Shown here piece after piece: positions 1,259 to 41,161 of a DNA stretch of 64,000 bases. This DNA comes from Bacillota bacterium (GTDB taxonomy: Bacteria; Bacillota; Clostridia; UBA1381): contig JAIKVQ010000182.1 of NCBI GenBank assembly GCA_024685565.1, positions 11,672 to 75,671 on the forward strand, given 5' to 3'. The translations under genes and the position numbers were made by a program. Positions within the stretch are counted from its first letter, which is position 1. The number at the start of each line of letters is the position of its first letter. Below the pieces are notes generated by a model, which was not told where the DNA came from, searched no databases, and was given only the letters and a program-made list of their open reading frames with translations.

Positions 1259-1287
1259 TTGATAAGCCGTGCCCTTGACGGTAATAT
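1259..1287 (+). promoter_or_regulatory. promoter of repeated-cassette type (copy F)
   Basis: TTGATA (1259-1264), 17-nt spacer, TAATAT (1282-1287), then leader AAAGAAGGAGG and ATG at 1318. Same layout as the copy at 61004-61032. Confidence 0.6.
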
Positions 1288-1317
1288 GTGGCTACAAAAA
1301 AAGAAGGAGGTCACAAA

Positions 1318-4611: not shown

Positions 4612-5067
4612 ATGACAATGGATGAGAAATACCCAAGGCTTATAGGGTGTACGGAAAACGCTGAAACAGAGCTGCATAGCGTTAAAGAGGTTGCAGAGTT
4701 TATTTGCAAGAACGGGCTTGTAGAGGATTTGAAAATCCTAACACCAAGCGGAATGCAGTTTATAACGACCTTCGGACTTTTCCTTGACAAGATAGCGGAT
4801 TTGGAATACCGCACAGAGCTTCTCAAAATACTGATTCCGATGCAGAAGGAAATCGAAAAAGGAATATTTGGAGGAACGGATGAGGAGCGGATCGAAAAGG
4901 AGATAGTCGATTACCTTGAATCTGAACAATACGACATAGATGCGGCAATCGAAATAAGGTGGATACAGGAAAACGGCGGATGCACACCTTCAAGGGAATA
5001 CATAGAGGAACTCCTCAAAGAGCGGAAGCGCACCGAAATTGAAAAGGCGATAAAGGGGACGAATTAA
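4612..5067 (+). CDS. hypothetical protein (151 aa), cassette gene
   Basis: Start moved from the track's 4507 to the ATG at 4612, directly after the conserved AGGAGGAAACAAAA leader. The 4507 extension would read through the promoter cassette. Confidence 0.6.
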   Translation: MTMDEKYPRLIGCTENAETELHSVKEVAEFICKNGLVEDLKILTPSGMQFITTFGLFLDKIADLEYRTELLKILIPMQKEIEKGIFGGTDEERIEKEIVDYLESEQYDIDAAIEIRWIQENGGCTPSREYIEELLKERKRTEIEKAIKGTN

Positions 5068-7910: not shown

Positions 7911-8780
7911 TTACAGCAAGTTTTCCCAGTCGGGATTAAATCCGTAATACTTCATATTTACAAACGGATATTTTTCTATAATGGCTTGTATTTCGGATTT
8001 CATTGAAAGGAAGTCTTCCGGTGACAAGAGGCGCTTAATAATAATTATAAATCCAAATAAATGTGCATTATCCTTTTCGCCTTTTTTATTGGTCATGAGT
8101 AGCTTTTTTTCATCACTTGATAAGTTTGGGCGTTGATCAAAAAAGCGGTTATATATTCTGCTTCCGTGTGCACACAGATTTCGCAGTATTGTCATCGAAT
8201 GCATAAGTTTTCCCAGTATGTTGCTTTTGATATTATACCTTTTGGCAACATCTATTTGCACATCATTTTTGGATATGGAATAAAGAATGGATATATCTGC
8301 TATTGTTAGTAGGTCAACATATGCCCACAAAGGCAAATCCTCGTTTAACTCCTCTATATAGTGCTTCAGATATGGCTCATCGCGAAGGCGTTTATCTTTT
8401 TGATGGTCTGCCTTTTCTATAATTTTGCTGTATTTATCACTGTCGATGAAGTTATCTTCGCATAAATAGCCGGTTGGTCCGTAAATGCGTGTGAATGTAT
8501 GTGCGTAAAGAGACTTAAACGTTACTTCGATTATTTCAAGATACTTAAGTAGAATATGTCTCAATTCATAATCAAATTCGTAAATATCTATGATATTTTG
8601 AAAAGTTGCGTTTTTATGGAATTTATCGTGAGTTCTCAATGTCAAAGAATAACCGCTGATTCGGTAATAGTTGTTATTAAGCAGAAAAGATGCCGCAGTT
8701 TCCTTGTCAGGAATGCTTAAACCGCGATTCTTGAGAATATCTATTTGCTCATCGATAGTCTTAAAGTCTTTAGTAGCCAT
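7911..8780 (-). CDS. Abi-like abortive-infection protein (Abi_2 / AbiD-AbiF family)
   Basis: 289 aa. N-terminal ...QIDILKNRGL...AASFLLNNNYYRISGY... is typical of Abi_2 proteins. AT-rich; antisense between terL and portal. Confidence 0.7.
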   Translation of the reverse strand: MATKDFKTIDEQIDILKNRGLSIPDKETAASFLLNNNYYRISGYSLTLRTHDKFHKNATFQNIIDIYEFDYELRHILLKYLEIIEVTFKSLYAHTFTRIYGPTGYLCEDNFIDSDKYSKIIEKADHQKDKRLRDEPYLKHYIEELNEDLPLWAYVDLLTIADISILYSISKNDVQIDVAKRYNIKSNILGKLMHSMTILRNLCAHGSRIYNRFFDQRPNLSSDEKKLLMTNKKGEKDNAHLFGFIIIIKRLLSPEDFLSMKSEIQAIIEKYPFVNMKYYGFNPDWENLL

Positions 8781-18400: not shown

Positions 18401-18799
18401 ATGGACATATACTTGAGCGTAAACAATCGAGAGCAAGTCATCTGTTTGCCTGTTTTGCCTTCTGAATTTACAGTTTCAAAGCCGCACTCAAATGAAGTCT
18501 TTGAGACTGTAACGCAAGGTGAACTGAACCTTATAGGAAAGTCGAAGTTAAAAAGCATCTCTTGGAGCAGTTTCTTTCCGTCCAAAGACTATGCATTTTT
18601 GCGCGATAAAAGTTATACTGCATTTGGATATGTATATATGCTTGACACTTGGTATTCACAAAAACTCCCAATGCGGCTTATAATCACCGAAACACCCATT
18701 AATATGGCGTGTACCATTGAGGACTTTTCATATACGATAAAAAAAGACGGTGATATGTATTACAGCATCACCTTGTCGGAGGTGATACTCGTACAATGA
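18401..18799 (+). CDS. tail protein (XkdP position, no LysM recognised)
   Basis: Gene order only. Confidence 0.4.
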   Translation: MDIYLSVNNREQVICLPVLPSEFTVSKPHSNEVFETVTQGELNLIGKSKLKSISWSSFFPSKDYAFLRDKSYTAFGYVYMLDTWYSQKLPMRLIITETPINMACTIEDFSYTIKKDGDMYYSITLSEVILVQ

Positions 18800-19749
18800 A
18801 CGACACGTTTCGACTACTTGCGGATGGCATTGATATTACAGGTATCGTTGGAGGTCTTACATGGCAGAATACGATAGACGAACTTGCCACAAAAATGAAT
18901 TTTGATACAGCAAAATCCGACACACAGTATGTCAATACTTATGAACCGAAAATTGGGAGCATTATCAATCTGTTTACAAACATTGAGATTTTTAGGGGCA
19001 TAGTTATAGCAGTAGATAACGGTGATGAAAAAAGGAACAAATATACCGTTACTGATTTTGGCTGGTATCTTAATAAGTCAAAGGAAACCTATCAGTTTAA
19101 TAATATGCCTGCATACAAAGCAATAAACAAGGTTTGTGCTGATTTTAATATTCCCATAGACAGTATCCCGGAACTTGGCACAGAGATACAGCAGATATAT
19201 GCGGACAAAACTGTGTCGGACATTATTTCCGATATACTTTCCTTATGCGGTGGAGGTTATAATCTTGACGTGACGCCAAAGGGACTACGGATATATAAAT
19301 ACGGCGAGATTTATGCCTATCCCGAATTCCGAATAACTCCGAATACACCTTTGACATACTCTCCCGCTCTGCGTGGGGGTGTGTCACATTCGGCGTCTAT
19401 CGAGGATATGAAAAACAGTATAAAAGTTATAACGGAAGCGGACAAAGTGTTTACTGTGAGAACCGTACTGCAAGATGCCGACAGTATCACAAAATTCGGT
19501 ATGCTACAGGAGGTTGTAAAAATTGATCCCGAAAAGGAAAATGCCCAGGTTGTTGCACAGTCAAAACTTGCAGAACTAAACAGGCAAAAGGAGAGTTTTT
19601 CTTTTGATATGATTGAAGCTATGGACAGCTACACTCGTGCAGGAATGGCAATGGATGTTGACGGAACTCCTTATCTCATAGAGGGCACATCACACAGTAT
19701 AACAAACGGAATACACCATGTGAAAGTCGATCTACGGAGATTAGAATAA
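18796..19749 (+). CDS. baseplate hub-type protein (XkdQ / late control D-like position)
   Basis: 317 aa; gene order after TMP/XkdP. Confidence 0.5.
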   Translation: MNDTFRLLADGIDITGIVGGLTWQNTIDELATKMNFDTAKSDTQYVNTYEPKIGSIINLFTNIEIFRGIVIAVDNGDEKRNKYTVTDFGWYLNKSKETYQFNNMPAYKAINKVCADFNIPIDSIPELGTEIQQIYADKTVSDIISDILSLCGGGYNLDVTPKGLRIYKYGEIYAYPEFRITPNTPLTYSPALRGGVSHSASIEDMKNSIKVITEADKVFTVRTVLQDADSITKFGMLQEVVKIDPEKENAQVVAQSKLAELNRQKESFSFDMIEAMDSYTRAGMAMDVDGTPYLIEGTSHSITNGIHHVKVDLRRLE

Positions 19750-19811
19750 GAAAAAGCCTGCCTTGGCATTACGCTTTAGCAGGTCATTTTCATTTGTATG
19801 GTTTTGTAAGT

Positions 19812-20009
19812 TTAATCCTCGTCATCATTCTTCCATGAAGAGGTAATGTGAACTTCGCCTTTGTCCGTATCCACAGCCATATTTTCACCTATTCGCATGA
19901 GCAAATCTCCGTCCGAATCGATGGCCATATTGTTCGATATGGGGTTTGCAAAGTCTCCATCATCATAATCGAAAAAAGGTCTTATATTTCTTCCTCCGCT
20001 TCCTTTCAA
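19812..20009 (-). CDS. small acidic protein (65 aa) with internal MA(I/V)D(S/T)D repeat
   Basis: TTG start 3 nt after the upstream stop (coupled?). NMAIDSDGDLLMRIGENMAVDTDKGE. The start is uncertain. Confidence 0.4.
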   Translation of the reverse strand: MKGSGGRNIRPFFDYDDGDFANPISNNMAIDSDGDLLMRIGENMAVDTDKGEVHITSSWKNDDED

Positions 20010-20012
20010 AAA

Positions 20013-20240
20013 TCAATCATCGTATTCAATATAATCGGGAGCCCATACAGGGACAAGGTAGTCCTTATTTCTACGGTGGGCATTATGAATTTGTTGATGC
20101 GATTTGTGGTTAGGATTTAACTGGTTTGAATGGTTGTTTGCGTTTGCCCTGTAAGCCTTGTTGTTTGGGTTGTTTTGGTTCGCCCAATTGTCAAGTTGTG
20201 CTTTTGTGTGCGTTTTGCACGATTTTTTCGTACCGCTCAT
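20013..20240 (-). CDS. small basic Asn/His/Lys-rich protein (75 aa)
   Basis: ATG 20240 lies 6 nt after AAAGGAG. NQNNPNNKAYRANANNHSNQLNPNHKSH repeats. The track ORF extension to 20396 has no SD. Confidence 0.55.
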   Translation of the reverse strand: MSGTKKSCKTHTKAQLDNWANQNNPNNKAYRANANNHSNQLNPNHKSHQQIHNAHRRNKDYLVPVWAPDYIEYDD

Positions 20241-20554
20241 AACAATCTCCTTTCTGAACCGAAAACTTAACTCCCCGTTTATGCGCATAAAACTAAAAAA
20301 TACTCTACACACACTAAACCGGAACCCATTAAAAATAATCGGTTCGATTTGTGGTGTAAAGTAAGGAAACAACAGGGGGACAACTACAGTCAACACACAA
20401 CCGCTTTCTTGTTTCTATAATGAGAATTTTGGAAGAAGCAATAGTTTCTTTATTTTACTCTGTCCGTCAAACGCACCAGGCTCAAAGATACAATTCGCAC
20501 TCTCATTCTGCGAACACTAAAAGCCGAAATACACATTGTCGTTTGACAATCTTG

Positions 20555-20583
20555 ATTATAGCAGAAAGAGATTAATATGTCAA
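20555..20583 (-). promoter_or_regulatory. perfect consensus sigma-A promoter (minus strand)
   Basis: TTGACA (20583-20578), 17-nt spacer, TATAAT (20560-20555), followed by the palindrome ATTGTCAAACGACAAT. Confidence 0.7.
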
Positions 20584-20594
20584 TGATTTCTTTT

Positions 20595-21389
20595 TTAATC
20601 ACCCCAAATTCTTAAATGGTCTTTTAATTGGTCTTTTTGGCTATCGGTTAAGCTTGAGTCATTTTCAATTCTTTCAATAGCAGAGGTACTCCATAGATAA
20701 TTGGAATTATCCCTTATATATGCCTCTTTGTCGCTAAAAGACATCTCAGGTGTATAGTTAGGAATGTATGATGAAGATGATGAACTTGAATATGATGAAG
20801 AATACTTTGAACTTGATGATGTTTCTGTCGTTATACTGTCAAGCGCACTTAAAATATCACGTAAAGTCAATTTGCTTAGTGAGAGAAAAGCCGAACTGCA
20901 TAATGCGTACAATGAAAATGTCAATCCCGCAATTAAAAAAGCAGGAAACAAGTAGAGCAGAATGAACAACTTTGAAACCATAATGTTAAGCCACTCAAAC
21001 CTAACAAATATATACGTCAAATAAGTTATGTAGAGCAAGGACGGATATAGAATAAGTCTTGGATTAACAGAGTAATGATGCTTAATGCGATAAAATGTTA
21101 AAACACGAAATACCAATCCCAATATGTAAGGTAAAACAAAAACGAGAATAATAAGCATCAATGGGAATCTATACCAAGTTGTAGGTATGAAGGTAAAAAG
21201 ACCATCAATTTTGTGCCATAAATAATTGATAACACCTATATTTATTCCTGAAATTTCAATTTTTAGATAATGCTCGATAGCACCTGTTGTATAAGCTAAA
21301 GAAAGCACAAAAAATATAATGGAATATATTGTTATAACTATACTGTGGGAATCATATATGTTGGATTTCTGACTACTGCTTATTCTCAT
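20595..21389 (-). CDS. polytopic membrane protein with Ser-rich linker and C-terminal soluble domain (264 aa)
   Basis: Several hydrophobic helices, then TTETSSSSKYSSSYSSSSSSSY, then a ~60-aa hydrophilic tail. AT-rich. Confidence 0.6.
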   Translation of the reverse strand: MRISSSQKSNIYDSHSIVITIYSIIFFVLSLAYTTGAIEHYLKIEISGINIGVINYLWHKIDGLFTFIPTTWYRFPLMLIILVFVLPYILGLVFRVLTFYRIKHHYSVNPRLILYPSLLYITYLTYIFVRFEWLNIMVSKLFILLYLFPAFLIAGLTFSLYALCSSAFLSLSKLTLRDILSALDSITTETSSSSKYSSSYSSSSSSSYIPNYTPEMSFSDKEAYIRDNSNYLWSTSAIERIENDSSLTDSQKDQLKDHLRIWGD

Positions 21390-21402
21390 AAAAACATCTC
21401 CT

Positions 21403-21768
21403 TCAATTATACGAACGAATTGATTTTTTTAATAGTAATATGGGTAAAATCAAATAAAATGAGCCAAAAAGCAATAATAGGAGGATTGATTTATATTTTT
21501 TCATATTAAGAGCTTCTTCGGCAAGTTTGACAGGAAGAGCGACGATATTCCACGCACAAGGCGGAATAATAAAAAGCATCGCAAGGGTTAAAACGTAAAA
21601 GCCCACACTGTATAGAAATTGAATGAAGTCAGATGTTGATGTGCATGAGTCAAAGAAATTTCTACCCCAGAGTATCAATATTATAGCACCTATTGCAATA
21701 GTTTCAATAAAGAAGTATGTGCAAAGATTTTTGACTGTATCACTTTTTTTGTAGGACACTAAAATCAC
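21403..21768 (-). CDS. small membrane protein (about 4 TM, 121 aa)
   Basis: Hydrophobic segments throughout. GTG start, weak SD. Confidence 0.5.
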   Translation of the reverse strand: MILVSYKKSDTVKNLCTYFFIETIAIGAIILILWGRNFFDSCTSTSDFIQFLYSVGFYVLTLAMLFIIPPCAWNIVALPVKLAEEALNMKKYKSILLLLLFGSFYLILPILLLKKSIRSYN

Positions 21769-21793
21769 CCCAATAATTCATATTACAAGAATT

Positions 21794-21823
21794 ATTGTAG
21801 CATATAATAATTGTTTTTGTCAA
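21794..21823 (-). promoter_or_regulatory. sigma-A-type promoter for the two membrane-protein genes
   Basis: Minus strand: TTGACA (21823-21818), 18-nt spacer, TACAAT (21799-21794). Confidence 0.55.
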
Positions 21824-21869
21824 TTGAACATACAAGAATGGTGTGTATCACGTAAGGGAGGTGCCAGTT

Positions 21870-22136
21870 TTGGACGGAATAACGGAACTTGCAAAGCTAT
21901 TAAAGGAGCGGGAAAATGAAAAAGGATACTCTCCTATTTTCGGAACAATAATAGAGTTGCCGAACACAAAAATTCGTATAAGCGATAAGATTATTTTAAC
22001 CGACAGCTACATAAAAACACTATTTGATTTCAAGCAGCAAAATGCTGATAACGAATATATCTATCTTGGATCTAAAGTACTTCTATTACCTTACCAGAAT
22101 AACCAAAAATTTATAATGATTGGGGTGTTGCGATAA
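21870..22136 (+). CDS. baseplate protein (XkdR / DUF2577-like)
   Basis: TTG 21870 lies 6 nt after AGGGAGGTG. SPIFGTIIELPNTKIRISDKIILT block and gene order. Confidence 0.55.
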   Translation: MDGITELAKLLKERENEKGYSPIFGTIIELPNTKIRISDKIILTDSYIKTLFDFKQQNADNEYIYLGSKVLLLPYQNNQKFIMIGVLR

Positions 22137-29781: not shown

Positions 29782-29861
29782 ATTGTCTTGATATTGTTTG
29801 AGTTCAGAGGTAATATGCATATACGCAATTACGTAGCCGATTTTTGGCAGGAAGGATAGTT

Positions 29862-31463
29862 ATGAGGGATTCAGGAAAAGAGGTCTATTCAGGCGGACTA
29901 TATTTGCGTTTATCACGAGAAGATAGGATGCAAAATAATGAAAGCATGAGTATATCAAATCAAAGAAAAATTACAGTAAGATATGCAACAGAGAATAAAA
30001 TTGAGATTGTTGAAATCTATATTGATGATGGTTATTCAGGTGTTAGCTTTGAAAGACCTGCATTCAATAGGATGATCAAGGATCTTGAGAACGGAAAAAT
30101 AAACTGTGTTATTGTAAAAGATATGTCTCGACTCGGCAGGAATGATGTTGAGGCAAATAGATATTACGAGGATGTATTTTTAACAAAGCATTATCGATTC
30201 ATTGCTATTGATGACAATGTTGACACATTAAGAGGATATGAGCAGCATGCAACCTTTAAAAACATGTTTAACTCAATGTATCCGAGAGATATTTCTCAGA
30301 AAACTCATTCAGCTTATATGGCATTAGCTCATAATGGCGAAAAAGTTGGGAAAGCCCCTTATGGATTAAAACATGATCCTGACAATAGGTATCATCTTAT
30401 CATTGATGAAGAAGCTGCAAAGGTTATAAGATATATATTTAGTTTAGCAATGAAAGGGATGTCAAGAAAAAAAATAGCAAGAATTTTAAGAGAAGAAAAA
30501 ATATTAAGTCCTGCGGCATACGCTAAAAGAAGCGGATGTAAAAGATATGAAAAGTACGTTAGTGCTTATGATGATGATTATATGTGGTGCGATAAAACGG
30601 TCGGTCAAATACTAATGAATGAGTTTTATATTGGAAGCAATGTTGCTAATACTACTCGTCGGTCATTCAAAACAGGGAAGTGTGAAAAATTACCAAGAGA
30701 AGAATGGGTTATCGTGCCCGATGTTCATGAAGCTATTATTTCAAAGGAAGTTTTCTATAGAGTACGAGATATTTTTAAGAGTCGTAGAAGAGGAACAAAA
30801 ATGGAAACCGTACAGTTATTTGCTGGATTAGTAAAATGCAAGGACTGTTCAAGATCAATGAATTATACTGGTGGCGATGTGCCTTTTTATACATGCGGAA
30901 CATATAGGAATAAAGGAAAAAAATACTGTTCTTCACATAGAATAAGGTATGAGGATGTTTATAACTGTGTGTTGCAGGACATACGGGATAAAACTTCCAA
31001 GCTTGAAAAAAATCGAGAAGAATTCATTGTTGCGGCATCAAGCAACTTTCAAATCAGTTTAAAGGAAGAGACTCGGAATTTAGAAAAAAGGTTAAAAGAA
31101 TTAACGCAGCGTTATGGTGAAATTGATATTCTCATACAAAAAACATATGAAAATTCCGTGCTTGGAAATTTATCAGGCGAGAGAATGTCGCTACTCATAG
31201 CAAATTATGAAAATGAGCAGATAGAAGTAAAAGAAGAACTCGAAAAGATAAAATTAGAAATAAAAACTATTCAGGAAAAGCACAAAAATGTTGTAGATTT
31301 CACTAAACTAATAGAACAGTACATTGGTGTGGAAAAAATAACAATGGAAATGGCTTTAGAGCTTATAGAAAAAATCGAAATAGGCGAAAAGTATATAAAA
31401 AATGGTAGGACATATCAGGATATTGATATAAGTTATCGATTCGTTGGTAAAATTGCGGTATAA
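29862..31463 (+). CDS. large serine recombinase (integrase)
   Basis: N-terminal resolvase domain (LYLRLSREDR...SISNQR), recombinase domain, Cys-rich zinc ribbon (CKDCSRSM...YTCGTY..KYCSSH), C-terminal coiled coil. Confidence 0.85.
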   Translation: MRDSGKEVYSGGLYLRLSREDRMQNNESMSISNQRKITVRYATENKIEIVEIYIDDGYSGVSFERPAFNRMIKDLENGKINCVIVKDMSRLGRNDVEANRYYEDVFLTKHYRFIAIDDNVDTLRGYEQHATFKNMFNSMYPRDISQKTHSAYMALAHNGEKVGKAPYGLKHDPDNRYHLIIDEEAAKVIRYIFSLAMKGMSRKKIARILREEKILSPAAYAKRSGCKRYEKYVSAYDDDYMWCDKTVGQILMNEFYIGSNVANTTRRSFKTGKCEKLPREEWVIVPDVHEAIISKEVFYRVRDIFKSRRRGTKMETVQLFAGLVKCKDCSRSMNYTGGDVPFYTCGTYRNKGKKYCSSHRIRYEDVYNCVLQDIRDKTSKLEKNREEFIVAASSNFQISLKEETRNLEKRLKELTQRYGEIDILIQKTYENSVLGNLSGERMSLLIANYENEQIEVKEELEKIKLEIKTIQEKHKNVVDFTKLIEQYIGVEKITMEMALELIEKIEIGEKYIKNGRTYQDIDISYRFVGKIAV

Positions 31464-34152: not shown

Positions 34153-37100
34153 ATGAATATGATACAGAATGATTTGAAGTTTTTTACCAATGAGCCTGAA
34201 CGTGACCTTTATAGCAGGTTTTCCACCATATTAAAGAGCAACACACAATTCTTTGATGTTTTAGTGGGATACTTTAGAACGAGTGGCTTTTTCAAGTTGT
34301 ATGAAGCTCTCGATACCGTTGAGAGTATTCGTGTTTTAGTCGGTTTGAATGTAGACAAATATACCGTCAAAATACTCGACCAAGCAAGAGAAGAACTTTC
34401 TATAACCTCCGCTTCTGCCGTTGAGAGCAAAGAATTACTGACAAAAGAAATCGAGACAGAATTTGAATTGTCCGATGCAACCTCCGAAGTTGAAAAAGGT
34501 GTTAGATATTTTATCGATTGGCTGAAAAGCGGAAAACTCCAAATGAGAATGTATACCGATGCACCTATTCATGCAAAGGTGTATATCATGAGAAAAGACC
34601 CAGAAAAAGTGCCTGATATGTACGGAAGCGTAATAACGGGGTCAAGCAATTTTTCGGAAGCAGGTCTTCTCAATAATTTGGAATTCAATGTTGAACTTAA
34701 GGATTCGGCTGATGTAAAATTTGCATTGGCTCGTTTTGAAGATTTATGGGAACGAAGCGTTGATGTAAGAGATACATATATAGAAGCTGTCGAAAAAAAC
34801 ACATGGATGCGAAATGATATAACCCCATATCAATTATATTTGAAAACGCTTTATGAGTTTTTTAAAGAAGAAATTAACGCTGATAAAGAGAACTTTGAAA
34901 CGCTCCTTCCCGAAGGTTATATGAGGCTCCAATACCAAATAGATGCTGTTACACAAGCCCGAAAGAAACTTGATGCTTATAATGGCGTTTTTATATCTGA
35001 TGTGGTCGGTCTCGGAAAGACTTATATTTGCGCCATGCTTGCAAATTCATTCAAGCGAGACACATATAAATTGTTTATATGCCCACCTGTCCTTGTTGAC
35101 TATTGGAGGGGCGTTCTACAGGAATTTGATGTGTCACGATGTGATGTAGAATCGCTTGGTAAACTCGATAAAATAATAGCTCGTGGGACTGATAAATACA
35201 GTTATGTATTTATTGACGAAGCTCACAGGTTTAGAAATAGCGGGACAGATAGCTTCACAAACCTACACCAGATTTGTCGAGGAAAAAAAGTTGTCCTTAT
35301 TTCCGCTACGCCCATAAATAATTATACGAGCGATATAGAAAATCAAATATACCTTTTCCAAGCGAAACAAAGCGGTACAATCAATGGAATTAAAAACATT
35401 GAAGGCTTCTTCCGTGGATTAAACTCAAAGCTCACGCAAAAAGCAAAGGGTACACCTGAATATATGAGACAACTGCGAGAAAATTCCGAGGTTATTAGGG
35501 ATAAACTCATTCGGGAGGTTATGATAAGGCGAACAAGGTCTGAAGTACAGAAATACTATAAAGATGACCTTGAAAAACAAGGACTTTCTTTCCCAACAGC
35601 AGGAAGCCCTGAACGAGTTATATATGAATTTGACGAGCAGACTGACGAAACATTCAAAGAAACCATAGAGGCAATTAAGGACTTTAAATATGCCCGTTAT
35701 ACACCCTTGCTCTTTTTAAAGGACAAAGAAAAGTATGCACAAATGTTGGTAGCGCAACGTAACATGGGTGGTTTCATGAAAGGCATTCTTGTTAAGAGAC
35801 TTGAAAGCAGTTTTTATGCCTTCAAAATGACACTTAACAGGTTCATTGAATCCTATGAAAAGTTTATAAAAATGGTCAAGGCTGGCAAAGTATACATAAG
35901 CAAGAAAGTAAATGTTTATGATTTGCTTGATGATGGCAACACGGAAAAACTCATGTATTTAATTGAGCAAGAAGACATCATGGTGTTTAACACTTCCGAA
36001 TTCGAGCCGAGATTCATCAAACTACTGGAGATGGATTTAGCACAACTTAAATACTTGAGAGACTTGTGGGAATTAATAAAAAACGACCCAAAAATAGAAA
36101 AGTTTAAGGATGAGCTTACAAGCAACCCAATAATCCGTGATAAAAAAGTTATTGTATTTACCGAATCAACAGAAACTGCTGAATATTTGCACGATGGTTT
36201 AAAGGACACATACGGAGATAGAATTGTTTATTTCAGCGGTCAAAGCAGTAATGCTCTAAAAAGTGACATTGAGGACAGTTTTAACCCGAAATACAAAGAC
36301 AAAGACAACGATAAGTATGACATTTTAATCACAACCGATGTATTGGCAGAAGGTATTAACTTACATAGAGCAAATATACTGTTTAACTATGACCTCCCGT
36401 GGAATCCAACGAGAATAATGCAAAGGGTTGGTAGAATTAATCGTGTCGGGACTGAATTTGAAAGAATTTATGTATATAACTTCTTTCCAACTTCTCAAAG
36501 CGCAAAGCATATACCATTGGAAGAGAGAATTTTAGAAAAACTGCAATCCTTCCATGACACGCTTGGCGAAGATTATAAATACCTTTCAGACGCTGAAGAG
36601 GTTTCACCTCAAAAACTGTTTTCTGACCTTTCTCAAAATCTTGACGATGAGGAGGAAAGTACAAATCCCGAACTGGCGTATTTGACTATTATTCGTCAAA
36701 TAAGAGATAATGAGCCTGAATTATTTGCAAAAATAAAACGGCTTCCCAAAAAAGCAAAAGCAGGAAAACACGCTGTGTCGAATGCGGATTCGACTGTATC
36801 ATTCATAAGAAAAGGTGCATTAAAACTGTTTTTTGAAACAAAAGACGGAGAAACAGAACAGCGTACCTTTATGGAAGCAATACAAAAAATTGAATCCGAC
36901 AAAGACGAAAAAGCTGTATCTGTGGCATCCTTGTACTATGACCATCTTAAAGCAAACAGTGATGCATTTGATAAGGCACTCATTGCGGAGGAAGAAATCA
37001 CTATAGAGCGACCAATGGTAGCAGGTAATGATGCAAAAGTTATTAAAACCCTCAAGGCAATGAAATCTGACAATCGTCTTACCGATGAGCAAGAGGCGAC

Positions 37101-37332
37101 AATAGACTTGCTTATTAAACGATGGGAAGACGGCGAAATCCCTGCAAAAATATCAAAGGACATTGTTAAAACAGTAAAATTAGCATCTGATGTTTTGACT
37201 TTGTATTACGACATAATGAAATTGATTCCCGATTCTTATCTTGAAGAAAGAAAGGAAAACAAAAAAACCGTTGACGGCGAAAAACAAATTGTTCTCTCTT
37301 GTTACATGAAAGGCGGTAGCAATAATGGCTGA
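34153..37332 (+). CDS. PLD-family (HKD) nuclease domain fused to SNF2/SF2 helicase
   Basis: HKD motif APIHAKVYIM...GSSNFS. Helicase motifs DVVGLGKT, DEAHRFRN, SATPINN, QRVGRINRVG. Confidence 0.85.
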   Translation: MNMIQNDLKFFTNEPERDLYSRFSTILKSNTQFFDVLVGYFRTSGFFKLYEALDTVESIRVLVGLNVDKYTVKILDQAREELSITSASAVESKELLTKEIETEFELSDATSEVEKGVRYFIDWLKSGKLQMRMYTDAPIHAKVYIMRKDPEKVPDMYGSVITGSSNFSEAGLLNNLEFNVELKDSADVKFALARFEDLWERSVDVRDTYIEAVEKNTWMRNDITPYQLYLKTLYEFFKEEINADKENFETLLPEGYMRLQYQIDAVTQARKKLDAYNGVFISDVVGLGKTYICAMLANSFKRDTYKLFICPPVLVDYWRGVLQEFDVSRCDVESLGKLDKIIARGTDKYSYVFIDEAHRFRNSGTDSFTNLHQICRGKKVVLISATPINNYTSDIENQIYLFQAKQSGTINGIKNIEGFFRGLNSKLTQKAKGTPEYMRQLRENSEVIRDKLIREVMIRRTRSEVQKYYKDDLEKQGLSFPTAGSPERVIYEFDEQTDETFKETIEAIKDFKYARYTPLLFLKDKEKYAQMLVAQRNMGGFMKGILVKRLESSFYAFKMTLNRFIESYEKFIKMVKAGKVYISKKVNVYDLLDDGNTEKLMYLIEQEDIMVFNTSEFEPRFIKLLEMDLAQLKYLRDLWELIKNDPKIEKFKDELTSNPIIRDKKVIVFTESTETAEYLHDGLKDTYGDRIVYFSGQSSNALKSDIEDSFNPKYKDKDNDKYDILITTDVLAEGINLHRANILFNYDLPWNPTRIMQRVGRINRVGTEFERIYVYNFFPTSQSAKHIPLEERILEKLQSFHDTLGEDYKYLSDAEEVSPQKLFSDLSQNLDDEEESTNPELAYLTIIRQIRDNEPELFAKIKRLPKKAKAGKHAVSNADSTVSFIRKGALKLFFETKDGETEQRTFMEAIQKIESDKDEKAVSVASLYYDHLKANSDAFDKALIAEEEITIERPMVAGNDAKVIKTLKAMKSDNRLTDEQEATIDLLIKRWEDGEIPAKISKDIVKTVKLASDVLTLYYDIMKLIPDSYLEERKENKKTVDGEKQIVLSCYMKGGSNNG

Positions 37333-40300
37333 TGCAACAATAAAAAAGGTCGAAAGAATATTAACAAGCGAATACTCTACACAAAATTTCCTTTCATTAG
37401 TACAGGAAATCTTCGCAACATTTAAAATAATTGCGCCGAATAGTTTTAGGAAAGAATTTACAAATTTTTCTTCTCATATAGAGGGGTCAACTCACATCGG
37501 CGATTATGTGACAGACGATAATGAAAAGATAGCAGTATTCTCTGTGCAACTAAAAAAGGATGCATTTGTCGAAAGGTCGAGAAGCACTCAGCGTAATTAT
37601 GCAAAGAAGCTAATTGAAAGTGGTAACTGTGAAGCGGCTCTCGTTGCTTTTTATACAGATGATAACCCCAAATGGAGACTATCTTTTGTCCGCCTTGATT
37701 ATCAGATGAGAATTGAAAAAGGCTCTTTGAAAGCTGTAGAGAATTTAACTCCTGCAAAGCGGTATTCGTATCTTGTGGGAAAAGATGAGCCTTGCCACAC
37801 AGCTATCGACCATTTAAGGTGTTTTATAGTTGATAGCAATTCTAAACCGAGCCTGTCCGATATAGAAGAGGCTTTCAGCGTAGAAAAGGTTACTAAAGAA
37901 TTCTTTGATTTATATAGAGAAAAATATTTACAGTTGCGAGAACACCTGGACGACAACGCTGATTTTGTAGCCGAATCCCAAAAATGTGGTTTTTCTTCAG
38001 AACAGTTTGCGAAAAAATTAATGGGTCAAATTGTCTTTTTGTATTTTCTTCAGAAAAAAGGATGGCTTGGCGTTCATGCATGGAAAAGCATATTAACTGA
38101 AAAAGAGTATAAAAATGTATTTTTCGTTTCAGGGGCGCAAGGACGAATTATAAAAGAGTATTTGCCAAAGGTGTATACATTACAAGCCGATGGTACATAT
38201 AAACTTAATTCAAGAGCTTTAGATGAAATACCTGATGATGCGGAAGAACTTATTGCAAACAATGTTAAAAGCGAAGAGACTTGGGGCGATGGCTCACGCC
38301 GCTTTTTAAGAACGCTTTTTAATTATTCACAAACACATAAAAAACATTTTTACGAAGAATACCTTGAGCCACTTTTCTACGATACATTAAACCGAAACCG
38401 TGGTGTATGGGGTTACTGCCCTGCTTTGCATTGTAGAATTCCATTTCTTTCGGGTGGGTTGTTTGAGCCACTTGATGGCTACGATTGGAAATCAAACTAT
38501 TTTGATATTCCTGATGAAATGTTTTCAAATAAAAAAGATGAATATGACCTTGATGCTGACGGCATTCTTGACATTTTTGATAGGTATAATTTTACAATGA
38601 GTGAAGACGAGCCGATGGAACGGGAAGTTGCTATTGACCCTGAAATGCTCGGAAAGGTTTTTGAAAATCTATTAGAGGTAAAAGACCGCAAATCAAGTGG
38701 CTCATTTTACACTCCCCGTGAAATCGTACATTATATGTGTCGGGAAAGCCTGATTAACTATCTTACTAAAAAAACGGATATTTCTGAAACTGCTATTCGT
38801 GATTTTATTATTTACGGCGATTTTATGAAAGATGAGGATACAGACCAAAGAAAGCGTGAATTAAATGATGGTTTGTATATTTCAGAAGAAATATTCAAAA
38901 TGGATATTGCAAGTAACACCGTGACGTTTAGCCGCATAAAGGAAATTGATGATGCGCTCGCTTCAGTAAAGATAGCAGACCCAGCTGTTGGGTCGGGAGC
39001 GTTTCCTCTTGGTATGATAAACGAAATAGTTAGAGCACGAGAAAACATTTCAGCTTATATGAGTATTTCTATGAATAAGCAAGCTCGTTGGTTTATGTAT
39101 AGTAATGACCGTTCTCCCTATGCGCTGAAAATTCATACCATAAAGAATTCAATATTTGCTGTTGATATTGAGCCTTCGGCGGTAGATATAACGCAATTAC
39201 GCTTGTGGCTGTCAATTGTAATAGATGATGAAATTAATCCTAAAGCCACTAATGAATTAGATGGGCATAAAAATCCGTTGCCGCTTCCTAATTTAGAGTG
39301 CAATATTCTGTGCGGAAATAGTTTGATTGATGAGTTTGAAGGTATAAAGCTGATTAATGAAAGTGACCTTATTGGTACATCAAAGGCAAACAGTCAAATC
39401 GATTTGAATCAAAATGCTTTTGAGGCTATACTAAAGAAAATGCTTGAAAAGCAGGACGAGTTATTCCGCTGTGATGATACACTTAAAAAGGAGGAATTAA
39501 AGAAAAGCATACAAGGCTACAAAGATTCAATCATTGAAGGACAATTGTTATTAAGCAGTAATGAAATCAAAGAAAAATACCAAATTGCCATCAAGCAAAG
39601 CTCTTTACCTTTTGTTCTGTGGCAGTTAGATTTTGCTCGTGTATTTAAGGAAAATGGCGGATTTGATATAGTGATTGGTAATCCCCCGTATGTTTCTACA
39701 AAAAAAGTTTCAAACGAAGACAAAAAGATATATGAACGAGTTTTCGGTTTTTCTGACGACACATATAATATGTTTACTTTTAGAGGCATGAGTATACTGA
39801 AAAATGGAGGGTCGTTAAGCTATATTATTCCAAAAACATTTTGGACTACTCAAACGAAACGAAACATGAGAGATTTGCTGTTGCAAAATACTATAGCTTA
39901 CATTTTTGATACCGCAAATCCGTTTGAAAGTGCGATGGTCGACACTTGCATAATCCATGTTATTAAAACACCGTTTACGGAAGACCACACTCTGAGTTTT
40001 ATGGATGGAAGTCAGGATTTATCAAAACCAGTCAAAATGTTTGTAAAACAGTCTGCTTTTATAAACACGCAGAATTCTGTTATTTTTAAGCCGACAGAGT
40101 TTAATTTGAGAATTAACGAAAAGTATGGCAAAACTGTAAAAGAATTATATGACAAATGGTGGGATAAAATTAAAACCTCTAAAGACATAGAAAAGAACAA
40201 AAAAGAATTAGCGCAATATAGAGATGGGTTAAAGCCAGGCGATATAGCACTTCTCGGATGTTTAACCGAAGGTGGTCAGGGGCTTGCAACCGCAAACAAT

Positions 40301-41161
40301 GGTAAATATATTGCGGTCAGAAAAAGCACGAAATGGGCAAATAACATTATGGCTTCTCGCCCTGCAAAATTACTTATGGCAATAGAGGAAAACAATATAC
40401 CCATAGGCAAATTATCTCCCTACTCTTCCGTCGAGGATTTCTTTGCAAATGCAGATGAATGCAAAATTGCCGAGTTGTTTGATTCATTAAAAGAAGAATA
40501 TGGAAGGGACATTTTTGGGCAGGGCTATATCTATAGATTGATTGATGACTCAGAATTGGCTGATGTTGATTCATTAACCCGTGATGAAAAAGAAAATGGA
40601 ATAGACACAACAAAGTGTTACTATGTCCCGTATGACAAAGGGGATAAAGATGGAAACAGATGGTATCTTGAAACCCCATTTGCAATAGCATGGTCTAAAG
40701 AAAATGTCCGTTTTTTGAAGACTGACCCCAAAGCACGATATCAGGGCTATTCGTTCTATTTTAGGGAGGGTTTTTGTTGGAGTGATATCAACACAACTTA
40801 TCTGAAATGCAGAATAAAAGGTAAAAGCGTAAATGATGTAAAAAGCATGAGCCTATATGGAATGACAAGCAAAGCACCTGAGTGCTATATTGTAGCCTTA
40901 ATTAATTCAGCTATGTTCAGTTTTTATGTTGACTCGTTTGTTAATAATACGCAGACTTTCCAAATAAACGATGCTCGACAATTACCGATAAAAATCCCTA
41001 ATGATAAAGAATTGGCAAAAATAACCTCTCTCTTCGATGAAGCTGTACAACTGAAAAAGGATTATTTTGCCAATCTCATATCACTTGAAAAATCAGATGA
41101 AGCCCTTAAAGCCATCCAAGAAAAGCTTGATTCTGCAGTATTAGATATCTATGCCATATAA
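37325..41161 (+). CDS. Eco57I/Type IIG-like N6-adenine DNA methyltransferase with C-terminal TaqI_C/HsdS-like specificity region
   Basis: 1278 aa. ADPAVGSGAFP (motif I) and VIGNPPYVS (motif IV). C-terminal ...VALINSAMFSFYV...INDARQLPIKIP. Overlaps the helicase stop by 8 nt. Confidence 0.85.
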   Translation: MADATIKKVERILTSEYSTQNFLSLVQEIFATFKIIAPNSFRKEFTNFSSHIEGSTHIGDYVTDDNEKIAVFSVQLKKDAFVERSRSTQRNYAKKLIESGNCEAALVAFYTDDNPKWRLSFVRLDYQMRIEKGSLKAVENLTPAKRYSYLVGKDEPCHTAIDHLRCFIVDSNSKPSLSDIEEAFSVEKVTKEFFDLYREKYLQLREHLDDNADFVAESQKCGFSSEQFAKKLMGQIVFLYFLQKKGWLGVHAWKSILTEKEYKNVFFVSGAQGRIIKEYLPKVYTLQADGTYKLNSRALDEIPDDAEELIANNVKSEETWGDGSRRFLRTLFNYSQTHKKHFYEEYLEPLFYDTLNRNRGVWGYCPALHCRIPFLSGGLFEPLDGYDWKSNYFDIPDEMFSNKKDEYDLDADGILDIFDRYNFTMSEDEPMEREVAIDPEMLGKVFENLLEVKDRKSSGSFYTPREIVHYMCRESLINYLTKKTDISETAIRDFIIYGDFMKDEDTDQRKRELNDGLYISEEIFKMDIASNTVTFSRIKEIDDALASVKIADPAVGSGAFPLGMINEIVRARENISAYMSISMNKQARWFMYSNDRSPYALKIHTIKNSIFAVDIEPSAVDITQLRLWLSIVIDDEINPKATNELDGHKNPLPLPNLECNILCGNSLIDEFEGIKLINESDLIGTSKANSQIDLNQNAFEAILKKMLEKQDELFRCDDTLKKEELKKSIQGYKDSIIEGQLLLSSNEIKEKYQIAIKQSSLPFVLWQLDFARVFKENGGFDIVIGNPPYVSTKKVSNEDKKIYERVFGFSDDTYNMFTFRGMSILKNGGSLSYIIPKTFWTTQTKRNMRDLLLQNTIAYIFDTANPFESAMVDTCIIHVIKTPFTEDHTLSFMDGSQDLSKPVKMFVKQSAFINTQNSVIFKPTEFNLRINEKYGKTVKELYDKWWDKIKTSKDIEKNKKELAQYRDGLKPGDIALLGCLTEGGQGLATANNGKYIAVRKSTKWANNIMASRPAKLLMAIEENNIPIGKLSPYSSVEDFFANADECKIAELFDSLKEEYGRDIFGQGYIYRLIDDSELADVDSLTRDEKENGIDTTKCYYVPYDKGDKDGNRWYLETPFAIAWSKENVRFLKTDPKARYQGYSFYFREGFCWSDINTTYLKCRIKGKSVNDVKSMSLYGMTSKAPECYIVALINSAMFSFYVDSFVNNTQTFQINDARQLPIKIPNDKELAKITSLFDEAVQLKKDYFANLISLEKSDEALKAIQEKLDSAVLDIYAI
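40753..40781. repeat. inverted repeat, left copy (inside the MTase gene)
   Basis: GTTCTATTTTAGGGAGGGTTTTTGTTGGA. Matches the reverse complement of 41521..41549 at 27/29 positions. Confidence 0.9.

Follow-up and report, generated by a model that had tools for sequence, protein, structure and literature searches.

Antisense cargo cassettes in the baseplate operon of a gut Clostridia prophage and the conserved structured RNA that heads one of them

Why would the tail operon of a prophage be interrupted by genes that run against it? In the window, by which we mean the whole stretch of DNA analyzed here (64,000 nt of contig JAIKVQ010000182.1 from a Bacillota bacterium of the Clostridia), the list of open reading frames (ORFs) places four minus-strand ORFs between an XkdQ-like and an XkdR-like baseplate gene. 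We found that this block is foreign accessory ("moron") cargo in a lineage-specific insertion hotspot at the XkdQ|XkdR (Q/R) junction, that its two transcription units appear to be independently acquired cassettes with separate histories, and that unit 2 is headed by a leader predicted to be a widespread, strongly conserved structured RNA with a covarying pseudoknot, which matches no Rfam 15 family. Taken together, we hold these three findings with high confidence. Protein lengths are given in amino acids (aa), and the block and its flanks are composed as follows.

18796–19749, plus strand: XkdQ/YqbQ-like baseplate gene, the left flank of the hotspot (PF24032 YQBQ, 9.3e-41; phrog_400, tail protein)
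19750–20585, minus strand: unit 2 cassette, comprising promoter, leader RNA, 75-aa gene, acidic gene, and terminator (delimited by alignment with L105, a sibling prophage fragment)
19750–19791, minus strand: terminator-like hairpin with U-run that closes unit 2 (−14.6 kcal/mol, z −2.7)
19812–20009, minus strand: small acidic protein with DxDGD-type repeats (65 aa from an upstream TTG; the homologous start is an ATA at 19985–19983, giving 57 aa)
20013–20240, minus strand: 75-aa basic, Asn/His/Gln-rich protein, here called b75, after a GAAAGGAG ribosome-binding site
20241–20548, minus strand: predicted structured leader RNA of 308 nt (from aligned leaders, RNAalifold, and pair counts)
20555–20583, minus strand: unit 2 promoter, TTGACA, 17-nt spacer, TATAAT, TG-extended (12/12; both hexamers conserved in homologous loci)
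20586–21843, minus strand: unit 1 cassette, an AT-rich insertion (blastn boundaries against L105)
20595–21389, minus strand: polytopic membrane protein of 264 aa; a Ser/Tyr-rich linker precedes its conserved C-terminal domain of 55 residues and three helices
21403–21768, minus strand: 121-aa membrane protein, probably 118 aa (start 21759), with 3–4 transmembrane segments; orphan
21794–21823, minus strand: unit 1 promoter, TTGACA, 18-nt spacer, TACAAT, TG-extended (11/12)
21870–22136, plus strand: XkdR-like (DUF2577) gene, the right flank of the hotspot (PF10844, 9e-7; phrog_579)

The flanking genes belong to a PBSX/SKIN-like contractile-tail baseplate module, which also includes a Sheath_initiator (PF10934, 2.5e-33) and a Baseplate_J gene (PF04865, 1.3e-71), and whose XkdP-Q-R-S-T order is conserved in 37 relatives. 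These relatives were counted among 38 IMG/VR loci retrieved by searching with the back-translated XkdQ-like protein, onto which the P, Q, R, S, and T proteins of the window were placed. Sixteen of the 37 have no insert, with Q and R −6 to 8 bp apart, including the closest relatives L001 and L002 (Q identity 81–82%, Q-R gap of only 8 bp), and the remaining 21 carry inserts of 383–2859 bp in 16 different lengths. Different cargo thus lies at one junction between conserved core genes, filled in 21 relatives and empty in 16, which is the pattern of an accessory hotspot. The initial annotation had taken baseplate modules of this type to be normally uninterrupted; for this lineage, that view was wrong.

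The Q/R cargo of the sibling phages is unrelated among loci and mostly co-oriented with the tail genes. Recognized anti-phage systems occur among it: we found a near full-length Avs5 (PADLOC, 1.9e-67), a PD-T4-6-type kinase (1.8e-37), a TIR/bSEFIR protein with a winged helix-turn-helix domain, and a Phd/ParE pair with NUDIX, as well as a GTPase with DUF697 accompanied by a TM2 protein, a PLD-like protein, nitroreductase, HxlR, and cupin genes, and RCC1 and copper-amine-oxidase-N proteins. None of the four genes of the window was present in the Q/R inserts of the 37 IMG/VR relatives. Given that the site carries recognized defense systems in sibling phages, the defense, exclusion, or toxin–antitoxin (TA) role proposed in the initial annotation is reasonable by location. 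The four proteins themselves match no Pfam, PHROG, PADLOC, or NCBIfam family. That none of the four is a tail component, as had been supposed, agrees with the absence of the block from L001 and L002, and homologues of the 75-aa, acidic, and 264-aa proteins were found outside virion modules.

The classical moron concept is the comparison for hotspot cargo of this kind. A parallel is also offered by P2- and P4-type prophages, whose variable cargo sites hold anti-phage systems (PMC9122126) and in which, likewise, conserved core genes surround a junction with varying, self-transcribed cargo in related phages. The present site differs in lying inside the XkdQ|XkdR baseplate operon of PBSX-like gut-Clostridia myoviruses, in that the cargo of the window and of L105 is antisense to the late operon, and in that the cargo of the window matches no known defense family. 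The hypervariable AcrIIA22 regions of clostridial prophages were also considered and set aside, because they lie at the prophage–host junction and hence are not the Q/R hotspot (PMC8545432). A RelE and HTH_3 pair between XkdR and XkdS in L105 (3057–3742) constitutes another small cargo site, one gene farther downstream than the Q/R hotspot.

The boundaries of the block and of its two units follow from comparison with related prophages. In blastn alignments, homology to L001 and L002 stops at 19739 and resumes at 21869/21870, which defines an insertion of 19740–21869. L105, which holds the closest b75 homologue (P0003, 84%), also carries unit 2 at the Q/R junction, likewise antisense: window positions 19746–20585 align at 85% identity over 846 nt (L105 4973–4128), and the alignment resumes about 18 nt further on in L105 with window positions 21844–22129. 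Unit 1 (20586–21843) is not in L105 and constitutes an extra insertion of 1,258 bp between the unit 2 −35 element and XkdR. The units also differ in composition, with 31.6% GC in unit 1 and 39.4% in unit 2, against 40–41% in the flanks; the initial description of an AT-rich block therefore holds for unit 1 and not for unit 2.

The arrangement of four minus-strand ORFs in two units, each with its own sigma-A promoter, was confirmed in the sequence, and the two promoters were the best 2 of 20 promoter-like sites in the region, for which shuffles gave an expectation of 13.9. The hairpin that closes unit 2 also folds on the plus strand after XkdQ (−15.5 kcal/mol, z −1.4). Inspection of the sequence between the 264-aa stop codon and the unit 2 promoter revealed no terminator, and therefore unit 1 transcripts should read into unit 2. 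No target-site duplication was found at the ends of unit 1. The only direct repeat, an exact 11-nt match (AATCACCCCAA on the plus strand, at 20597–20607 and 21763–21773), brackets the unit 1 genes; in 2.4 kb a repeat of this kind is about what chance would give, and its two copies do not fall on the boundaries defined by homology. At or just past the predicted unit 2 transcription start, a perfect 16-nt palindrome (ATTGTCAAACGACAAT, 20550–20535, minus strand) is partly conserved in L105 and L045 and could be an operator or a 5′ stabilizing hairpin.

What distinguishes unit 2 is its leader. The initial annotation had given it a length of about 310 nt, which stands (308 nt, about 20548–20241), and had missed that it is a conserved structured RNA with covariation and a pseudoknot. 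Its elements are listed below, all on the minus strand, ending with the Shine–Dalgarno sequence (SD) and the segment that precedes it (pre-SD).

20515–20493, minus strand: P1
20507–20501 with 20425–20419, minus strand: kissing loops
20441–20409, minus strand: P2
20449–20444 with 20370–20365, minus strand: P5
20363–20354 with 20310–20301, minus strand: P3
20345–20338 with 20329–20322, minus strand: P4
20262–20256, minus strand: pre-SD, the alternative partner of the P4 5′ strand
20253–20246, minus strand: SD

The region from promoter to ribosome-binding site is conserved at the DNA level across homologous loci, and nhmmer places the leader immediately before 64 of 66 b75 genes and at no other position in the examined loci or in the window. 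In a structure alignment of 31 non-redundant leaders, RNAalifold returned P1, the long-range P5, P3, P4, and a terminator, to which our hand-completed model adds P2, P6, P7, and the loop–loop pseudoknot. The model has 61 pairs, and 92.3% of its cells hold standard pairs, compared to 34–43% when the partners are slid. Compensatory changes occur in 35 of the 61 pairs and the observed values were reached by 0 of 500 shuffles, but the alignment contains two main clades and many biallelic columns co-vary phylogenetically, so that some of the "compensatory" counts represent few events. Even so, the slid controls and the count of distinct pair types speak for a real structure, and the secondary structure has the support from covariation that characterizes structured cis-regulatory leaders. 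The kissing interaction between the loops of P1 and P2 covaries, for example AAUGAGA/UCUCAUU and AACGAGCA/UGCUCGUU and, in the sister family introduced below, CCGGA/UCCGG, CUAGGA/UCCUAG, GCCAGA/UCUGGC, and ACGAGG/CCUCGU, and in 53 of 55 leaders the two loops remain complementary despite many changes of sequence.

In most homologues the SD is closely preceded by a strong terminator (CCACGCAC...GUGCGUGG followed by U6, with a strong fold in L045), the 5′ strand of which can pair with UGCGUG in the P3 3′ strand (93% pairable). The pre-SD (UCGGUUC or UUGGCUC) is in turn complementary to the P4 5′ strand, with 98.2% of positions paired and compensatory changes in five of the seven pairs. Given that this alternative helix scores better than the local P4 hairpin, alternative conformations are indicated. 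The leaders of the window and of L105 keep the whole core and have lost the 3′ half of the terminator. Between these two copies the leader core is 97% identical and b75 third codon positions are 65% identical, and thus the leader RNA appears to be under stronger constraint than the coding sequence; many of its invariant nucleotides are unpaired. We found no Rfam 15 match on the leader in the window, seven b75-type loci, and nine loci of the sister type, either at gathering thresholds or at E ≤ 1, and no tandem repeat in 20241–20548 such as defines type III TA systems. An upstream ORF within the leader was rejected, as the ATG in loop 1 is missing in half of the homologues.

The proteins downstream of this leader are small and unfamiliar. 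The b75 family comprises at least 200 database clusters of 73–75 aa at 63–84% identity, with conserved His residues and an isoelectric point (pI) of 9.4. The AlphaFold2 (AF2) model of b75, with a predicted local distance difference test (pLDDT) score of 78, has helices at residues 13–22, 28–40, and 48–57 and an acidic C-terminal tail. The protein had no match in Pfam, PHROG, PADLOC, or NCBIfam, nor in PDB by sequence profile or Foldseek; by Pfam and PADLOC, it is not a ToxN/CptN/TenpN or Abi_2 protein. The acidic protein (pI 4.05), whose DxDGD motifs resemble Ca/Mg-binding loops, is homologous to partners of 57–60 aa in L045, L101, and L105. The ORF itself is present, as initially described, but the 65-aa reading requires an upstream in-frame TTG without ribosome-binding site, and the homologous start is ATA in the window where the sibling L105 has ATG. 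Compared with L105, dN/dS values of 0.08 for b75 and 0.14 for the acidic gene indicate that both are under purifying selection. Downstream of b75, the acidic partner is present in only 33 of 66 loci, in contrast to the obligate pairs of type II TA systems, and a simple toxin/antidote pair, one of the roles proposed in the initial annotation, fits poorly because the partner is missing in the other 33.

Unit 2 is a horizontally mobile module. We detected it in at least 51 GTDB species genomes of the Oscillospiraceae, Ruminococcaceae, Acutalibacteraceae, and Lachnospiraceae, inside integrative mobilizable elements where it adjoins a tyrosine integrase and tRNA-Ser, in TnpV/AbiEii islands, at an island boundary, and, in many of these genomes, beside tRNA-Ser, tRNA-Ala, or tRNA-Pro genes. 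Many modules lie within 0.1–2 kb of a tRNA gene, either downstream of a tRNA-Ser read from the same strand or immediately upstream of a tRNA-Ala/Pro (tRNA positions in L040, 4053–4141; L056, 4161–4249; L079, 4493–4581; L101, 5261–5349; and others), which suggests that they occupy the margins of islands integrated at tRNAs. Leader and b75 also lie antisense between the tail genes and the tape-measure gene of a siphovirus-like IMG/VR phage (L109, 1643–2157; L110, 11940–12454), a second instance of the module convergent inside a tail operon.

A related leader also precedes an unrelated first gene. A scan of metagenomes with the P3-hairpin pattern yielded 88 loci, which with two loci from the viral scan made 90 examined; 53 have the full leader and b75, and 27 have a related leader, then a 113-aa protein, then the same acidic protein (e.g., L113, 236–1127; L183, L184, L194, and L128). 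The architecture of P2/kissing, P5, P3, and terminator recurs in the sister leader, in which a GGAUC/GAUCC helix surrounds the terminator and the 5′ domain differs from that of b75-type modules. The invariant columns of the 113-aa protein (CGW.HH..P...GGT....NL.CT...N) and its weak Pfam profile matches, all below curated cut-offs, to HNH_5 (4e-4), HNH_4 (1e-3), and HNH (3e-3) suggest an HNH-like nuclease, as do sub-threshold matches in NCBIfam to the HNH regions of IscB (1.2e-4) and Cas9d and, in PDB, to Cas8f-HNH (1.5e-3). By hhalign, b75 and this protein are not homologous. Since RNA core and acidic partner are common to two unrelated first genes, we favor the view that the RNA regulates the module and is not a ligand specific to b75, and that the acidic protein is an inhibitor or immunity factor. 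Two Rfam RNAs lie near HNH-type modules: a DUF3800-XI RNA about 135 nt from the L118 leader (1268–1314, minus strand) and a Gut-1 RNA in L128 (7537–7613, minus strand).

Pairs of HNH DNase toxins and acidic immunity proteins are well known from colicins E7 and E9 with Im7 and Im9, and the sister module likewise pairs a small HNH-motif protein with a small, very acidic one. In contrast to the colicin systems, the present module is intracellular and has an RNA leader, its HNH matches are sub-threshold, b75 takes the place of the HNH protein in the window, and sequence similarity to colicin or Im families is absent.

Unit 1 is of a different kind. The initial annotation had listed a 121-aa protein with four transmembrane segments; that it is a membrane protein stands, but a GGGGTGA ribosome-binding site precedes the second GTG (21759), so that the start is more likely there (118 aa, which is also the database gene call), and hydropathy gives three to four segments. 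Both unit 1 ORFs are long and intact, with ribosome-binding sites, 14-nt spacing, and the near-consensus promoter. In a word-indexed search of 5.8 billion proteins neither had relatives, the 121-aa protein matching only itself; the exact 264-aa protein was found on only one other short contig, and it has no relatives in IMG/VR. By exhaustive HMMER searching, the 264-aa protein has 12 remote relatives, at E 1e-11 to 6e-4, which share the last ∼55 residues, with the motif ..S.EK..YI..N..G..S....E.I.ND..LT.SQKE.LK.HL.IYGD preceded by a Ser/Tyr/Gly-rich linker. Some of these relatives also share its N-terminal membrane part, and others are Sel1-like or stand-alone proteins of 53–58 aa. Residues 210–264 are modeled by AF2 as three helices (pLDDT 86–97), and the 264-aa model has no significant Foldseek match in PDB. 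Two relatives occupy ordinary chromosomal neighborhoods, one beside TrkA and the other beside a serine dehydratase and SpoVAC.

Prophage superinfection-exclusion (Sie) membrane proteins such as Sie2009, Ltp, and T4 Imm and Sp provide the comparison for unit 1, which likewise encodes small prophage membrane proteins, with transmembrane segments by hydropathy and AF2 helices, under its own vegetative-type promoter (11/12). It departs from that set in that no homology to a characterized Sie protein was detected, no PHROG, Pfam, or PADLOC family matched, and the remote relatives of the 264-aa protein are chromosomal. Location, promoter, and topology suggest superinfection exclusion or another membrane-level lysogenic-conversion function as a guess, and the exclusion role itself is doubtful.

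From these observations, we propose two self-transcribed cassettes in the Q/R hotspot, with an RNA-gated unit 2 and an exclusion-type unit 1, an explanation that as a whole we consider fairly probable. Within it, action of the leader in cis, as an attenuator or riboswitch-like gate, is marginally favored, and an effector/inhibitor function of the defense type for unit 2 is plausible, though somewhat short of an even chance. The leader would form its folded core (P1/P2 kissing loops, P5, P3, and P4), followed in most homologues by the intrinsic terminator; alternatively, the terminator 5′ strand would pair with the P3 3′ strand as an antiterminator, and the pre-SD and the P4 hairpin would compete for the 5′ strand of P4, which would make expression of the downstream effector conditional. 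The acidic protein would most likely be an inhibitor or immunity partner, because a related leader drives an HNH-like nuclease together with the same acidic protein, and b75 would be an effector that is harmful, or active, only once released. Unit 2 could then be an RNA-gated toxin/immunity or abortive-infection-type module in the service of the mobile element, to which it might bring defense, abortive infection, addiction, or a competitive advantage. In the lysogen, the two membrane proteins of unit 1 would be made from their own promoter, with transcription continuing into unit 2. Given that its terminator stem is lost and its acidic gene lacks an ATG, the copy in the window may be deregulated or decaying.

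RNA data on a homologous module bear on this explanation, whereas no RNA run was found to contain the sequence of the window. In L056, whose b75 is 72% identical, RNA-library contigs are confined to the module: a 691-nt contig spans 4700–5390, beginning in the 5′ region of the leader and reaching nearly to the end of the acidic gene; others begin at 4686 and 4693, and most do not reach the flanks. These contigs are consistent with an autonomous transcript of the module, with the reservation that they are low-depth and unstranded and that DNA contamination is possible.

Besides this reservation and the clade structure of the leader alignment, several points weigh against our explanation. The antiterminator pairing is conserved, but no covariation was found in it. 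The window copy has no terminator, its stem being degenerate. None of the four proteins matched a known toxin, antitoxin, or Sie family, or any PADLOC entry, and the HNH assignment in the sister module consists of sub-threshold matches. Because half of the b75 loci lack the acidic partner, b75 is not an obligatorily neutralized toxin, unless the RNA or its own acidic tail neutralizes it. Finally, the relatives of the unit 1 protein are chromosomal and without phage link.

Known regulatory RNAs give two comparisons. Transcription-terminating riboswitches and structured attenuator leaders likewise have a multi-helix core, a pseudoknot, and covariation, and here, too, the terminator shares a UGCGUG duplicate with a core helix and an alternative pairing lies beside the SD; our leader differs in its length (∼300 nt), in the tiny mobile-element proteins downstream, and in the window copy without terminator. 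The nearest precedent appears to be AbiF/RCd22, in which a structured 5′ RNA gates the Abi toxin of a C. difficile prophage (PMC12373285). Like that system and type III TA systems (PMC12373285), modules of the unit 2 type run from a promoter through a structured 5′ RNA and, in most homologues, a terminator to a putative protein effector on Clostridia prophages or mobile elements, but their RNA has neither repeats nor an abiF motif (no Rfam match), b75 is a 75-aa three-helix protein rather than an Abi_2/ToxN endoribonuclease, and an acidic partner is often added.

Of the competing explanations, the one that survives best, although we consider it unlikely, is that the leader is a small-molecule or ion riboswitch and that b75 and the acidic protein are host-fitness cargo, for example for metal or stress handling, rather than toxin or defense genes. 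It would account for the large conserved core with its invariant unpaired nucleotides, pseudoknot, and terminator platform, for a related core that precedes two unrelated ORF types (b75 and HNH-like) as aptamers do, for the frequent occurrence of b75 alone, and for the conserved His residues of b75 and the Ca/Mg-loop-like DxDGD of its partner. What speaks for RNA gating of a mobile-element effector instead is that both downstream gene types occur only in mobile-element contexts and never with metabolic or transport genes; moreover, an HNH-like nuclease is hard to place in a metabolic regulon, and no ligand can be inferred.

Slightly less likely still, the leader may be a trans-acting RNA partner, either a type III-like antitoxin or a ribonucleoprotein scaffold for b75 or the HNH-like protein, with the terminator setting the RNA:protein ratio. 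In its layout, with a promoter, a structured RNA, a terminator in most homologues, and then a small basic protein, the module resembles type III TA systems and AbiF/RCd22 (PMC12373285), each leader is strictly associated with one ORF, the 5′ domain changes with the type of module, and b75, at pI 9.4, is frequently without protein partner. However, the RNA contains no tandem repeats, b75 is unrelated to ToxN, CptN, TenpN, and Abi_2, the RNA core is common to two unrelated proteins, and in the window and L105, which lack the terminator, a separate RNA species is not expected.

It is improbable that unit 2 is an anti-defense or establishment module that does not protect the host, with the acidic protein as DNA mimic or inhibitor of a host nuclease and b75 as a nucleic-acid-binding helper. 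Its presence in many kinds of elements, near element ends and under a strong constitutive-type promoter, would agree with such a role, as would the very acidic partner (pI 4.05) and the AbiEii and restriction/helicase genes that adjoin it in islands. In the HNH variant, however, the acidic protein is paired with the nuclease of its own module, which fits self-immunity better, and the libraries searched yielded no similarity to known Ard, Ocr, or Acr proteins. Most improbable is an interpretation of the block, or of unit 1 at least, as decaying junk DNA with non-functional ORFs, which might be read from the AT-rich composition of unit 1, its proteins without close relatives in 5.8 billion, the single other contig with the exact 264-aa protein, and the loss of both the acidic-gene ATG and the leader terminator, since unit 1 has long intact ORFs with ribosome-binding sites, 14-nt spacing, and a near-consensus promoter, the 264-aa C-terminal domain is conserved and confidently predicted to fold, and the leader and ORFs of unit 2 appear to be under strong purifying selection.

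A bolder version of the RNA-gated reading, which we also regard as unlikely, is that the leader represents a new sensor-RNA class of gut-Clostridia mobile elements: on sensing an infection- or element-related signal, it would set free small toxic effectors (b75 or a mini HNH nuclease) that an acidic inhibitor otherwise restrains, in an RNA-gated abortive-infection or addiction module, or else the RNA would be the scaffold or guide partner in a minimal ribonucleoprotein.

The wider window adds context to these cassettes. With TerL (large terminase), portal, capsid, sheath, tape-measure, tail-fiber, amidase, and large serine recombinase genes, the element is a complete temperate myovirus-type prophage. 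It has a second antisense insertion, a 289-aa Abi_2 protein of the AbiD/AbiF family (7911–8780, minus strand; PF07751, 3.7e-43), which sits between the TerL and portal genes and has its own promoter (TTGACA-17-TATTAT, ∼8883–8855) and a ∼70-nt leader with a CCCCAGG/CUUGGGG hairpin; this leader did not match the Rfam abiF motif. Past the serine recombinase (29844–31463), window positions 34153–41161 encode a 1059-aa PLD-SNF2/helicase protein and then an overlapping 1278-aa ORF, in a stretch that looks like a defense island, and a PLD-SNF2 gene similar to that of the window lies near the b75 module in L046. DNA near-identical to 19750–21869 was found only in gut metagenome runs, with four runs of one study containing 35–69% of the sampled words and lower shares in bovine and sheep gut runs, and the host is probably an animal-gut member of the Clostridia.

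As moron or hotspot cargo, the block belongs to a known kind, and what is new is the leader RNA with its two alternative mini-ORF modules. The Q/R hotspot in the baseplate operon of widespread gut-Clostridia prophages offers a new place to mine for defense and exclusion genes, including the orphan membrane pair, and antisense cassettes within late operons make one ask how transcription of the tail genes gets past convergent units with strong promoters. The leader itself is a large structured RNA outside Rfam 15, carried by at least 51 species-level genomes and by numerous metagenome contigs. Tied on mobile elements to two alternative mini-ORFs with a common acidic partner, it is a candidate either for a new class of riboswitch or attenuator or for the RNA that controls a toxin/immunity system.

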